The notes under the pieces are model-generated. The model saw nothing but the letters and a program-made list of their open reading frames with translations, was not told the origin of the DNA and ran no database searches. A stretch of DNA of 17,126 bases from a virus (Duplodnaviria > Heunggongvirae > Uroviricota > Caudoviricetes), in the IMG/VR virus record IMGVR_UViG_2778261418_000005, positions 1 through 17,126 of that record; one strand, given 5' to 3'. Shown piece after piece: positions 89 through 17,126 of the stretch. The stretch's first letter is position 1, and each line of letters starts with the position of its first letter. The position numbers and the translations under genes are program-made.

Positions 89-331
89 ATGGCAGAGATT
101 ATTCCCATGACTGAAGAACAGAAATTCCAGTTAGAGATTTACAAACTGGTCATGAACCAGAACGCAGCCGCGGAGGAAGCATTTCAATTCATTGGCACTG
201 ACGAACTGAAGCTTGAGCTATTCAAAATTCACTTCCAGTCAGGTGGCGCTAATTCAGATATCACGATCCGCACATTCGAAGCGGTGCGTAAATCGAAGGA
301 AGCGTTAGACCTGTTCACTACCGGAGCATAA
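89..331 (+). CDS. Hypothetical small protein (80 aa) immediately upstream of the terminase genes
   Basis: Intact ORF with a GGAG Shine-Dalgarno at 79-82, 6 nt before the ATG at 89; same strand and tight spacing with the downstream terminase genes. No recognisable motif. I recall a similar small ORF at this position in P22-like phages, from memory only. Confidence 0.55.
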   Translation: MAEIIPMTEEQKFQLEIYKLVMNQNAAAEEAFQFIGTDELKLELFKIHFQSGGANSDITIRTFEAVRKSKEALDLFTTGA

Positions 332-410
332 ACATGGCAACTCAAGGGTTCGACAACCCATCCAAATTCCGCGATGAATGGGATAAGCAAGCAGAAGGGA
401 AATAATCAAT

Positions 411-14492: not shown

Positions 14493-14816
14493 TTAATCAT
14501 CCATGGATGGATTGAGCTTATCTCGTGTTGATGTGGCGATTTGCCCTACATTCCTAAGCCAAGATTTCAAATCCTTGATATTGTCATTGATTTCATGAAT
14601 ATCTTCTTTTTTTAGTCTGTTAATATTATTCTCAATAATTTCAATGGATTGCTCAATATCAGATATAGTGAATGATAGTTTGTTCTTCTCATCTTTTATT
14701 GAGTTTTTAAGTGCTTCGTTCTCAGTCTTGAGGTCAGATATCTTTTGTTTTAAAGATGCCAGTTGGTACTGAACCACAATGAGTGCGATAGCTATCACGA
14801 TAACTGTTGTATACAC
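14493..14816 (-). CDS. Hypothetical membrane-anchored coiled-coil protein, 107 aa (accessory/moron gene)
   Basis: GTG start at 14816 preceded by AAGGAGG with a 5-nt spacer; N-terminal hydrophobic helix (YTTVIVIAIALIVV) followed by a K/E/N/I-rich heptad-like segment; strongly AT-rich compared with the flanking structural genes; stop codon abuts the gp16-like stop (TAATTA at 14490-14495). Confidence 0.55.
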   Translation of the reverse strand: MYTTVIVIAIALIVVQYQLASLKQKISDLKTENEALKNSIKDEKNKLSFTISDIEQSIEIIENNINRLKKEDIHEINDNIKDLKSWLRNVGQIATSTRDKLNPSMDD

Positions 14817-14933
14817 ACCAACCTCCTTAGTTTTGAGCAGGATACCATGAAAAAAGTAAACATCTTTTGCCTACTTCACATTTGAATGGTTTGTCATTAG
14901 GATGTTTCCGGTTTTTTAAATATGGAAATTGAT

Positions 14934-15353
14934 ATGAAGAGGATTATTGGCGTCGTTGCTGGCGCTATGATGTTATCTGGGTGCGCAACTATTGTTGGTG
15001 ATGAAACGCAACTTGTGCAAGTGAACAGCAACCCTTCCGGTGCGAGCTTTAAGGTAAAAGATGAATCAGGCGTGATTGTTGCGCAAGGCAAGACTCCACA
15101 AGGAGTAACTCTTGCCAAGTCAGATGGTAGTTATTTTGGCAAAAAGAGCTACCAGATCACTATGGAAAAGGATGGGTACGAACCAGTTACCCTGCCAATC
15201 AAAGCCAATGCTAATGGTTGGTATATTGGTGGAAACCTTGTGTTTGGTGGGTTAATCGGTTGGCTTGCTGTTGATCCATTTAATGGTGGGATGTATACAT
15301 TGAAGCCAAAAGAGGCAAATGCATCTCTTATACCTTCTACGAAGCAAGATTAA
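14934..15353 (+). CDS. Putative lipoprotein with a PEGA-like domain and a glycine-rich C-terminal segment, 139 aa
   Basis: Signal peptide MKRIIGVVAGAMMLSGC with lipobox LSG-C; a following segment (NPSGASFKV...GKTP...KDGYEPV) resembles the PEGA domain pattern; C-terminal GWYIGGNLVFGGLIGWLAVDPFNGGMY. Start at 14934 preferred over the track's 14922. Confidence 0.7.
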   Translation: MKRIIGVVAGAMMLSGCATIVGDETQLVQVNSNPSGASFKVKDESGVIVAQGKTPQGVTLAKSDGSYFGKKSYQITMEKDGYEPVTLPIKANANGWYIGGNLVFGGLIGWLAVDPFNGGMYTLKPKEANASLIPSTKQD

Positions 15354-15409: not shown

Positions 15410-15946
15410 TCAAACAACCCACCAGTTTGCCTGATTGGATACCAGCCTTGCAGTTTTTATGGAATTAATTATGCCATGCTCAAGAGCCTTGTTAGCATCC
15501 AAAATGGTCGAGTCTGCTATCAGGGATGCCCACCTAATATGGGTTCCGATGTCGATATTGAACGCCTCAACGAAGCGATCAAGATCGTTATCGAGGCATT
15601 TCCCGTACTCTCTCAATCTGGCATGGTCGGCGGCTGGGGTGGCAAAGCCCCATAATAGAGGATGTAACAGGAATCTTGATAATGGGTTTGCGAAACGTTC
15701 TGAGCCAGCCAGGAAAACGATATTAGCTATGGATTCAACATTGCTTATGTTGTGAGTTCTAACGGTAACAGGGAGTGACTTAAGAAAGTTATACGCAGTA
15801 AAGCCAGCGGCAGTTTCCCCTCCCTGACTTGATATATGGATATTTAATTCAGTTGCGCCCTGAGATAATGCGGTGAGACAGTGGTTCTGAAGTTGCCCAA
15901 CAGTGGCAGTGTTAACGGGGCATAAGAAATGAATTGTGTGCAGCAT
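15410..15946 (-). CDS. Minimal ClpP-fold (peptidase S14-like) serine peptidase, 178 aa
   Basis: Collinear match to the ClpP core as I recall it: NIHISSQGGETAAGFTAYNFL against ClpP YINSPGGVITAGMSIYDTM; SIANIVFLAG against catalytic-Ser SMGAFLLTAG; LLHPL against MIHQP (His); a D-S-T segment near the ClpP Asp position; C-terminal HGIINSI against YGLVDSI. Start codon overlaps the stop of the upstream Mnt-like gene (TAATG). Confidence 0.7.
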   Translation of the reverse strand: MLHTIHFLCPVNTATVGQLQNHCLTALSQGATELNIHISSQGGETAAGFTAYNFLKSLPVTVRTHNISNVESIANIVFLAGSERFANPLSRFLLHPLLWGFATPAADHARLREYGKCLDNDLDRFVEAFNIDIGTHIRWASLIADSTILDANKALEHGIINSIKTARLVSNQANWWVV

Positions 15947-16182
15947 TATTTTTCATCCTTACCATACATGGTCTTTAGCGTCTCAAGCAGCGCCTCCCTG
16001 AATTTGTCAGCCTCTTTCTGAGCAAATTCATTGCTATTAAGCGATCTACCACAAACAGCATCTTCGATAATCTGTATTATTTCAGCATTCATGGAACGCT
16101 TGTTATGTTGCGCCCTAGCTTTAACCTTTGCCTTTAACTCTTTGGAAATTCTAATATTTATTTGCGGCTCTTCGCGTGACAT
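15946..16182 (-). CDS. mnt: Mnt-like ribbon-helix-helix repressor, 78 aa
   Basis: N-terminal RHH pattern (INIRISKELKAKVKARAQHNKRSMNAEIIQIIEDA) similar to my memory of P22 Mnt; divergent from the arc-ant genes as in P22 immI; GGAGG 4 nt upstream of the ATG. Confidence 0.82.
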   Translation of the reverse strand: MSREEPQINIRISKELKAKVKARAQHNKRSMNAEIIQIIEDAVCGRSLNSNEFAQKEADKFREALLETLKTMYGKDEK

Positions 16183-16205
16183 ATCACCTCCATAGCATTT
16201 TGGTG

Positions 16206-16234
16206 ATATTACTATTGCATCACTGCGATCACAA
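16206..16234 (-). promoter_or_regulatory. Candidate Pmnt promoter (leftward)
   Basis: On the - strand: -35 TTGTGA (16229-16234), 17-bp spacer, -10 TAATAT (16206-16211); about 25-30 nt upstream of the mnt-like start. Confidence 0.4.
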
Positions 16235-16243
16235 TGGTATAAC
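16215..16243 (+). promoter_or_regulatory. Candidate Pant promoter (rightward), overlapping Pmnt
   Basis: -35 TTGCAT (16215-16220), 17-bp spacer, TG-extended -10 TATAAC (16238-16243); about 28 nt upstream of the arc-like start. Confidence 0.45.
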
Positions 16244-16253
16244 GGTTATACCA
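16235..16253. promoter_or_regulatory. Perfect 19-bp palindromic operator candidate (Mnt-like operator)
   Basis: TGGTATAAC-G-GTTATACCA is exactly self-complementary around the central base; overlaps the candidate Pant -10 and start site, as the Mnt operator does in P22. Confidence 0.55.
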
Positions 16254-16270
16254 AATTGATTGGAGGTAAT

Positions 16271-16444
16271 ATGATAGTCAAGTCAGACGCACCAAAGTAC
16301 CCTTTGCGCATCCCATTAGAGGTTAAGTTAGCAATCGAGAAGTCAGCGAAAGAAAATGGTCGCTCAATAAATACCGAGATGGTAATGCGGTTGGTGGATA
16401 GTTTAAGGCGGGATAGTTCTAAAGGTAATCTAGCAAAAAGTTGA
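16271..16444 (+). CDS. arc: Arc-like ribbon-helix-helix repressor, 57 aa
   Basis: [38 protein letters not shown] aligns in length and pattern with my memory of P22 Arc (MKGMSKMPQFNLRWPREVLDLVRKVAEENGRSVNSEIY); GGAGG at 16262-16266; directly upstream of ant. Confidence 0.8.
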
Positions 16445-16507
16445 AGCCCCAACTGCGGGAACAGTCAGGGCTTCGGTTGTCAGTAAATCCGTGGAGAAAA
16501 ACCAACA
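16433..16507 (-). ncRNA. Candidate sar-like antisense small RNA covering the ant ribosome-binding site and start codon
   Basis: On the - strand: a TATACT -10 element (16513-16518) inside the ant 5' end, then about 70 nt downstream a hairpin (16443-16474) followed by a T-run (AACTTTTTGCTA). The size and placement parallel the roughly 69-nt sar RNA of P22. Promoter -35 is weak; ends are approximate. Confidence 0.4.
16443..16474 (-). terminator. Hairpin acting as a terminator on the - strand only (arc-ant intercistronic region)
   Basis: GAAGCCC...GGGCTTC stem with an inner ACTG/CAGT stem; followed by a T-run only in the - orientation, so rightward arc-ant transcription would read through. Confidence 0.5.
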
Positions 16508-17126
16508 TGAATAGTATAGCAATTTTAGAAGCAGTGAACACCTCTTACGTACCATTCAACGGTCAGCAAATTATCACCGCCATGGCTGCCGGAGTTGCAT
16601 ATGTTGCGATGAAGCCAATCGTTGAAAACCTTGGAATGAGCTGGTCAACGCAGCAAACAAAACTCATGAAGCAGATTAGCAAATTCAACTGTGTTCATAT
16701 GAACATGGTTGCTGCTGATGGGAAGCTTCGTAAGTTACTCTGCCTTCCTTTGAAGAAGTTAAATGGATGGCTGTTCAGCATCAACCCTGAGAAAGTTCGT
16801 GCTGACATCCGTGATAAACTTATTCAGTACCAGGAAGAATGCTTTACTGTGCTGCATGACTACTGGACGAAGGGAAAGGCAGAAAATGCACGTAAGAAAA
16901 CATCTGTTGATGACAGGACTCCGCTTCGTGATGCTGTAAATATGCTGGTCAGCAAAAAGCATCTAATGTACCCAGAAGCTTATGCAATGATTCATCAGCG
17001 TTTCAATGTGGAAAGTATTGAAGAGCTTGATGCATCTCAGATACCGAAAGCCGTAGAGTACATCCACAGGGTAGTGCTTGAAGGTGAGTTCATTGGCAAA
17101 CAAGAGAAGAAAACCAACGAGCTTTC
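16507..17126 (+). CDS. ant: Antirepressor Ant, N-terminal part (ORF continues past the window end)
   Basis: Open frame from the ATG at 16507 to the window end with no stop (206 codons); N-terminus [21 protein letters not shown] matches my memory of P22 Ant; located immediately after arc as in P22 immI. Confidence 0.8.

Follow-up and report, generated by a model that had tools for sequence, protein, structure and literature searches.

The window, by which the whole analysed stretch of DNA (17,126 nucleotides of the Caudoviricetes record IMGVR_UViG_2778261418_000005) is meant, contains two small genes for repressors of the ribbon-helix-helix (RHH) type, one similar to mnt and the other to arc, which are transcribed away from each other and are separated by a short gap with a pair of predicted promoters and a perfect palindrome (Table 1). 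The Mnt-like protein is composed of an N-terminal RHH domain and a C-terminal helix resembling that of P22 Mnt; its top match in the PDB is 1mnt (E=1.2e-8), and a BLASTP alignment with P22 Mnt (residues 1-75) shows 35% identity over 81 aa (E=1e-18), the C-terminal helix included. The best natural PDB match of the Arc-like protein is P22 Arc (1arq, E=1e-6), with 40% identity. A recent PDB entry of a 79-aa 'Arc family DNA-binding protein' (9pio, chain G) also matches the Arc-like protein (E=3e-6). Across the arc-ant junction the antisense RNA sar was recognised far above the gathering score of its Rfam model (43), and the terminator scan placed the sar terminator hairpin at 16474..16443. From about 16437 onward, that is in sar and ant, nucleotide identity to P22 and epsilon34 amounts to 97-100%. 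The remainder of the window is a P22-like virion-gene (late) operon of an E. coli phage, and in related loci the neighbouring genes are of the gp16 type and for the tailspike; the region from the ejection-protein genes to the tailspike gene has been described as very variable across P22-like phages (PMC2629481; PMC8022706). The same mnt-gap-arc stretch is present in about 43 complete E. coli genomes, and a scan of genome contigs for relatives returned distant RHH genes only.

The mnt stop codon shares one base with the ATG of a ClpP-like gene (TAATG). ClpP-related NCBIfam models match the encoded protein below their cut-offs, and PADLOC gave no match for the gene. It is probably a cargo gene, co-transcribed with mnt from the leftward promoter of the prophage. 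Inspection by eye suggests that motifs resembling the serine site and the histidine site of ClpP (ESIAN, LHPL) are retained. In other prophages the slot behind mnt is occupied by genes of 132 aa, of 217 aa, or of 90 plus 148 aa, or by SieA, and because different prophages carry different genes there the slot looks like a cargo hot spot. Two further genes were noted between the ejection-protein and ClpP-like genes, one for a coiled-coil protein of 107 aa that has a hydrophobic stretch at its N-terminus (14493-14816, - strand) and one for a probable lipoprotein of 143 aa with a weak PEGA-domain match (14922-15353, + strand).

Table 1. Features of the mnt-arc region of the window, with promoter elements and operator as predicted; haplotypes are the distinct gap versions aligned in this work
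Feature	Position	Strand	Remarks
ClpP-like gene, 178 aa	15410..15946	-	Pfam CLP_protease, E=4.5e-12
mnt-like repressor gene, 78 aa, RHH strand SREEPQINIRIS	15946..16182	-	Pfam Arc domain, E=5.9e-13
mnt Shine-Dalgarno GGAGG	16187..16191	-	near-invariant in 14 haplotypes; one substitution (L121)
Candidate leftward (Pmnt-like) -10 TAATAT	16206..16211	-	TAnTAT in 14/14 haplotypes; top regional score
Candidate rightward (Pant-like) -35 TTGCAT	16215..16220	+	TTGCA invariant in 14 haplotypes; outside palindrome
Candidate leftward -35 TTGTGA	16229..16234	-	17 bp from -10; TTGT in all haplotypes
Candidate rightward TG-extended -10 TGgTATAAC	16235..16243	+	best + strand candidate of region
Perfect 19-bp palindrome TGGTATAAC-G-GTTATACCA	16235..16253	none	candidate operator of Mnt-like repressor
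arc Shine-Dalgarno GGAGG	16262..16266	+	invariant in alignment
arc-like repressor gene, 57 aa, strand APKYPLRIP	16271..16444	+	Pfam Arc domain, E=2e-12
sar antisense RNA	16439..16506	-	Rfam RF00262, 95.6 bits, E=5.9e-21, full length
ant (antirepressor), 5' part, runs off window	16507..17126	+	Ant annotated in P22, epsilon34 and many records

The four promoter hexamers listed in the first-pass annotation of this DNA were all found where it had placed them, with a 17-bp spacer in each pair, and the interdigitation, given there as within about 40 bp, extends over 38 bp (16206-16243). In the rightward pair the TATAAC hexamer occupies 16238-16243, 17 bp from TTGCAT, and the TG lies at 16235-16236. 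The hexamers are those of two putative sigma-70 promoters of opposite direction. The leftward one (TTGTGA-17-TAATAT) would start near 16199 and serve mnt with the ClpP-like gene, and the rightward one (TTGCAT-17-TGgTATAAC) would start near 16250 and serve arc and ant. In promoters of the face-to-face class each start is located downstream of the other, so that the transcripts overlap at their 5' ends. The term 'face-to-face' had been applied to this pair, wrongly, because the predicted starts are 51 bp apart, face away from each other and give predicted transcripts without overlap; the accompanying wording 'overlapping divergent' fits the hexamer positions and describes the predicted pair correctly. 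The P22 promoter pair is also worded as divergent and overlapping (PMC2724298).

A consensus promoter scan of 15800-16700 (threshold 9/12) called zero promoters. The leftward candidate agrees with the consensus in 4/6 positions of the -35 and 4/6 of the -10, and the rightward candidate in 3/6 and 5/6 respectively, with C instead of T at the normally invariant -7; both remain under the threshold of the scan. A crude weight matrix was made for this analysis and the best score of every 150-nt segment across the window was taken as background. On this matrix the leftward candidate is the regional best (10.5) and exceeds the 90th percentile of the segment scores; the rightward candidate is the best on the + strand (8.1), yet it stays inside the background range of the window. 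The same crude scale gives 16.6 for P22 Pant and 13.1 for P22 Pmnt. A rightward promoter placed as in P22, judged by its distance to the genes, with a -35 near 16205-16210 and a -10 near 16228-16233, was considered and rejected, the bases at these positions being neither promoter-like nor conserved.

The perfect 19-bp palindrome of the first-pass annotation was confirmed, its arms being fully complementary when read from the sequence, and its left half is identical to the TG-extended -10 of the rightward promoter. It is the sole perfect palindrome with arms of at least 9 nt (loop 0-3) in the 17-kb window, where first-order Markov simulations produce 0.33 of them per 17 kb; scaled to the 88-bp gap, the chance of such a palindrome is about 0.002. 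When up to 3 mismatches were allowed, the 19-mer occurred in 0/200 shuffles, and no second copy of the 19-mer or of the half-site GGTATAAC was found in the window. A literature search for the operator sequence gave no match among the searchable papers. Two IMG/VR contigs (L008, L009) in which the exact 19-mer stands in an unrelated context were left out as chance matches. Two other inverted repeats were also discarded: an extended one of 21 nt (16223-16243 / 16245-16265, 76% complementary), the outer parts of which are only partly kept in relatives, and one of 8 nt around the mnt start (ATATCACC / GGTGATAT), which is perfect in this window alone.

Relatives were gathered by searching IMG/VR for exact copies of the 19-mer, by a profile search for relatives of Mnt, by look-ups of distant Mnt proteins of the same N-terminal strand type (SREEPQINIR, here type 1) and from two deposited phages. 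The resulting alignment comprises 14 distinct gap versions with a type-1 Mnt, in which Mnt identity falls to 61%; the type-1 gaps come from elements of six enterobacterial genera (E. coli, Salmonella, Klebsiella, Cronobacter, Serratia and Scandinavium). Three non-coding blocks are invariant in the 14 haplotypes, namely TAnTAT followed by C, TTGCA, and ACAATGG-ATAAC-GTT-TA. Outside the hexamers and the palindrome T16204, C16212 and A16222 are invariant too, and to the right of the palindrome each position of AA-n-TGAT (16254-16260) deviates in a single haplotype. The stretch 16220-16229 exists in at least seven unrelated versions, and the mnt leader is divergent as well. Within the palindrome the left half has 1 variable column, in two closely related haplotypes, and the right half has 3, in seven haplotypes, as is expected if the left half doubles as an extended -10. 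At the central base both G and C occur, and a concerted change of both halves was not met in the sample.

This conservation bears on two explanations which dispense with some part of the proposed switch. It is very improbable that the palindrome is a hairpin of RNA or DNA, such as a terminator or a processing site, instead of a protein-binding site. If it were wholly transcribed it would fold with -12.6 kcal/mol (z = -2.7 against shuffles), however transcripts from the proposed promoter would hold its last 4 bases only, a T-run behind it is absent and the terminator scan made no call; moreover, it is the sequence and not just the pairing that is conserved, compensatory changes are lacking and the single-arm changes break the pairing. 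It is likewise improbable, though less so, that the palindrome is an operator while arc and ant are transcribed from another start or mainly by late read-through, with TTGCA as a protein-binding site. This would suit the three matching bases of the -35, the C at -7, the missing call of the consensus scan, the score within the background range of the window and the position of the region inside a late operon. Nevertheless, the crude matrix finds no better + strand candidate in 16150-16300, the invariant TTGCA stands exactly 17 bp from the invariant TGgTATAAC, and the left half of the palindrome, TG included, is more constrained than the right. In addition, a TG extension can compensate for weak hexamers, which is textbook knowledge.

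The first-pass annotation regarded the region as the equivalent of the P22 immI switch, and gene content, order and spacing all agree with this. In P22 (X01916), as in the window, mnt is directed leftward and arc, sar and ant follow rightward in the same order, the mnt-arc gap measures 90 bp against 88 bp in the window, two overlapping divergent promoters (in the window candidates) have spacers of 17 bp each, and a symmetric operator, in the window the palindrome as candidate, lies over the rightward promoter and adjoins the upstream edge of the leftward -35. The P22 elements in X01916 are Pant (TTGACA 302-307, TATATT 325-330), Pmnt (TTGAGA 335..330, TATCAT 312..307), the Arc operator (307-327) and the Mnt operator AGGTCCACGGTGGACCT (337-353, centre 345). 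From the operator centre the distance to the mnt ATG is 66 bp in P22 and 62 bp in the window, and to the arc ATG 25 and 27 bp, and in both the leftward -35 has its upstream edge 10 bp away. By these distances the palindrome corresponds in position to the Mnt operator, and relative to it the leftward promoter is located as Pmnt is in P22.

Differences from P22 are found mainly on the rightward side and in the operator itself. Measured from the leftward hexamers, the candidate rightward promoter of the window is displaced to the right by about 14 bp, so that the candidate operator lies over its TG motif and -10 instead of the start site, and the predicted starts are about 51 bp apart as compared with about 37 bp in P22. 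The palindrome had been described as lying over the rightward -10 and start region; the first half of this description holds, and coverage of the start site is the situation of the P22 Mnt operator. On the crude scale the rightward promoter also stays well behind Pant (8.1 vs 16.6). The candidate operator has 19 bp (GGTATAAC-G-GTTATACC) against 17 bp in P22 (GGTCCAC-G-GTGGACC), with one extra base pair in each half-site and an AT-rich centre, although both share the frame G-GT..AC-N-GT..AC-C, in which the central base is free; among P22-type loci it is G, C or A. The sequence of the P22 Arc operator is absent, and the corresponding stretch is hypervariable. Identity to P22 is only 35% for Mnt and 40% for Arc, and a ClpP-like gene stands behind mnt. 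The signature of P22 immunity, AGGTCCACGGTGGACCT together with the Mnt strand RDDPHFNFR, differs from the window in both operator and strand. Judged by these sequences, the window carries another immI allele than that of P22. The operator was said in the first-pass annotation to be a different one, which agrees with its length (2 bp longer), its sequence and the distinct N-terminal strand of Mnt; together with the positional equivalence, these make a different immI specificity the natural inference. It is an uncharacterised specificity variant of the well-known immI switch and no new kind of system.

By analogy with P22, we infer that the palindrome is bound by the Mnt-like protein. Arg3, Gln7, Asn9 and Arg11, which we take to correspond to the contact residues of P22 Mnt, are invariant within type-1 Mnt, and in comparison with the P22 strand Arg, Asn and Arg are kept with a sole change of His6 to Gln. 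The Gln/Asn/Arg triad of type-1 Mnt equals the base-contacting triad of P22 Arc, so the strand residues alone cannot assign the site to Mnt. Co-occurrence is equally silent on which protein binds the palindrome, since type-1 Mnt and Arc always occur together: in 24/24 loci obtained with the Arc-like protein as query, the contig also has the palindrome or a type-1 mnt. Natural recombinants that would separate the operators of Mnt and Arc were sought among these 24 loci and none (0) was met; where arc-ant has been lost (L123), the palindrome is lost as well.

Another view is that the palindrome serves the Arc-like protein, or both RHH proteins, as operator, with the Mnt-like protein acting elsewhere, for example at the conserved left block 16204-16224. 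We consider this unlikely, though it deserves more attention than the two explanations discussed above. In its favour, a distance of 27 bp separates the palindrome from the arc start, it overlaps the promoter that in P22 is under autoregulation by Arc, the triad of P22 Arc recurs in the Mnt-like strand, a separate Arc operator was not found, the mnt-like and arc-like genes always co-occur, and the two divergent proteins of one other immI type have a single strand and four repeats in common. It is opposed by the geometry, because Arc of P22 has both promoters to repress and is positioned between the hexamers, whereas the palindrome leaves the leftward promoter free as a Mnt operator does; ending at the edge of the leftward -35, the site would block the rightward promoter only, as is needed from a maintenance repressor. 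Furthermore, the frame GGT..AC-N-GT..ACC is common to the palindrome and the P22 Mnt operator and is not that of the P22 Arc operator. The position equivalent to Asn11 in the Arc-like strand is Pro, Asn or Val across loci with the palindrome unchanged, in contrast to the four invariant contact positions of the Mnt-like protein, and its variation does not track the variable spacer either, which weakly argues against the Arc-like protein as reader of the palindrome or the spacer.

An Arc site between the promoter elements was assumed by analogy in the first-pass annotation. Conserved hexamers for the overlapping promoters of that analogy are present; an Arc operator could not be identified in the gap of the window. 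A conserved symmetric operator in the 17-bp spacer was rejected, for the hypervariable 16220-16229 differs in nearly every haplotype, including those with identical Arc-like strands. Two weak candidates were nevertheless seen: an inverted repeat TACTATTG (16210-16217)-N14-CAATGGTA (16232-16239), the centre of which coincides, as does that of the P22 Arc operator, with the pseudo-dyad of the promoter pair, and AnTACT at 16208-16213 and 16219-16224, 11 bp apart. Both are speculative and are largely accounted for by the promoter hexamers. The additional conserved positions in 16204-16224 and 16254-16260 might be part of the site of the Arc-like protein.

A wider view was obtained from 80 Mnt loci of IMG/VR, in which at least four types of N-terminal strand were distinguished, each with its own repeat in the gap. 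Type 1 (SREEPQINIR) is accompanied by GGTATAAC-S-GTTATAC, the P22 type (RDDPHFNFR) by GGTCCAC-N-GTGGACC, type 3 (VSISPTTVR) by TTTGATATCAAAGTG-type sites, and type 4 (ARDISPLGIR) by four repeats of the CACGGTGTAG type. The comparison of operators across relatives with divergent Mnt proteins, put forward in the first-pass annotation as a check, shows that the palindrome is kept with type-1 Mnt and changes with the strand type. Between type 3 and type 1 the C-terminal domain of Mnt is almost unchanged and the strand and the sites are different, which indicates that the DNA-reading part and its sites are exchanged jointly. Such a joint exchange fits the finding of Knight and Sauer in 1989 that a short N-terminal region reportedly sets the specificity of Arc and Mnt. 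As the mosaic joints are located at the mnt stop (~15946) and at the arc end (~16437), the exchanged unit comprises mnt, the operators and arc. Details of the individual layouts may be added here. In type 3 loci (L127-L159) TTTGATATCAAAGTG lies beside mnt and CACTTTGCTATC inside the rightward promoter; type 4 loci (L141-L171) have four CACGGTGTAG-like repeats, and their divergent proteins share nearly one recognition strand; an IMG/VR locus (L183) and phiv205-1 (L004) are listed with immI types of quite different operator layout.

The interpretation that we favour, and hold to be probable, is that 16206-16253 is an immI switch in which the palindrome is the Mnt-type operator of a heteroimmune allele and its left half serves as the TG-extended -10 of arc-ant. 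A Mnt-like repressor bound to the palindrome would exclude RNA polymerase from the rightward promoter, given that the left half of the operator consists of the same 9 bp as the extended -10. With the palindrome ending at the upstream edge of the leftward -35, transcription of mnt would continue in the lysogen and may even gain from the lost competition between the promoters. The segment mnt-operator-arc (about 15946-16437) would act as a specificity cassette which is swapped against a conserved sar-ant backbone, and the allele created by its exchange should show heteroimmunity towards P22. Sequence features, homologies, positional equivalence, conservation and the co-variation of strand type with repeat type are observed directly; where transcription begins, how strong the promoters are relative to each other, and heteroimmunity are predictions.

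A further reading goes beyond a mere change of address and proposes that type-1 immI is wired differently from P22. According to it, the use of one half-site as extended -10 (9 bp) may force the C at -7; the ant promoter may be intrinsically weaker than the mnt promoter, with the hierarchy of P22 reversed; the Arc-like protein may have no inter-promoter operator of its own and may act on the palindrome or on the conserved flanks; and the Mnt-like strand, which has the triad of P22 Arc, may yet pair with a site unlike either P22 operator and with half-sites 1 bp longer. Taken jointly these points are doubtful. If they were true, type 1 and the three other strand and repeat types would form a natural series for how RHH strands read DNA.

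The principle of the switch dates from the 1980s and the gain is incremental. New in comparison with P22 are the 19-bp operator that would double as an extended -10 and the shifted, apparently weaker ant promoter. The Mnt operator and its recognition strand appear to be swapped as a cassette in P22-like prophages of at least six enterobacterial genera, and the four or more specificity types constitute a natural data set for the rules of DNA recognition by RHH repressors. The types also bear on the question of which prophages can cross-repress the antirepressors of one another. Finally, the switch offers a concrete explanation for a published puzzle, namely the silence of mnt in lysogens of a phage in which the switch is deleted.

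This phage is Escherichia phage vB_EcoP_Kapi1 (MT813197), which is about 95% identical to the window at the nucleotide level over the retained parts (78% of 15900-16560) and has a type-1 Mnt 96% identical to that of the window. In contrast to the intact switch of the window, Kapi1 has a 65-bp deletion corresponding to 16217-16281, which takes away the palindrome, two of the candidate hexamers (leftward -35 and rightward -10) and, on the arc side, the start codon along with the ribosome-binding site; in Kapi1 (L001, about 1776) arc is fused in frame to TTG. The same deletion is found in an IMG/VR contig (L115). In the transcriptome of the Kapi1 lysogen, published in 2026, mnt was unexpressed, to the surprise of the authors, and the deletion is unmentioned (PMC12922286). 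The loss of the switch is a simple explanation for the silent mnt. This evidence is circumstantial: it fits the proposed placement of the promoters and is no test of it.

Besides Kapi1, the deposited phages found with a type-1 Mnt were two, both with an intact switch which has not been described. Klebsiella phage ST899-OXA48phi17.1 (MK448236) has the palindrome and a Mnt 81% identical to that of the window, and in Cronobacter phage ES2 (JF314845), with a Mnt identity of 62%, the palindrome reads TGGTATAACGGTTATATCA; the spacer and leader sequences of both are unlike those of the window. In ES2 (L214) the arc-like gene, on the - strand at about 1110-955, is intact and stands without annotation in the record. 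A separate variant was seen in two IMG/VR loci (L107, L113), where TGGCATAAC replaces TGGTATAAC at the equivalent of window position 16238, a change that alters one arm of the operator and also the rightward -10 at its first base; possibly this is another route to the silencing of ant in a resident prophage.
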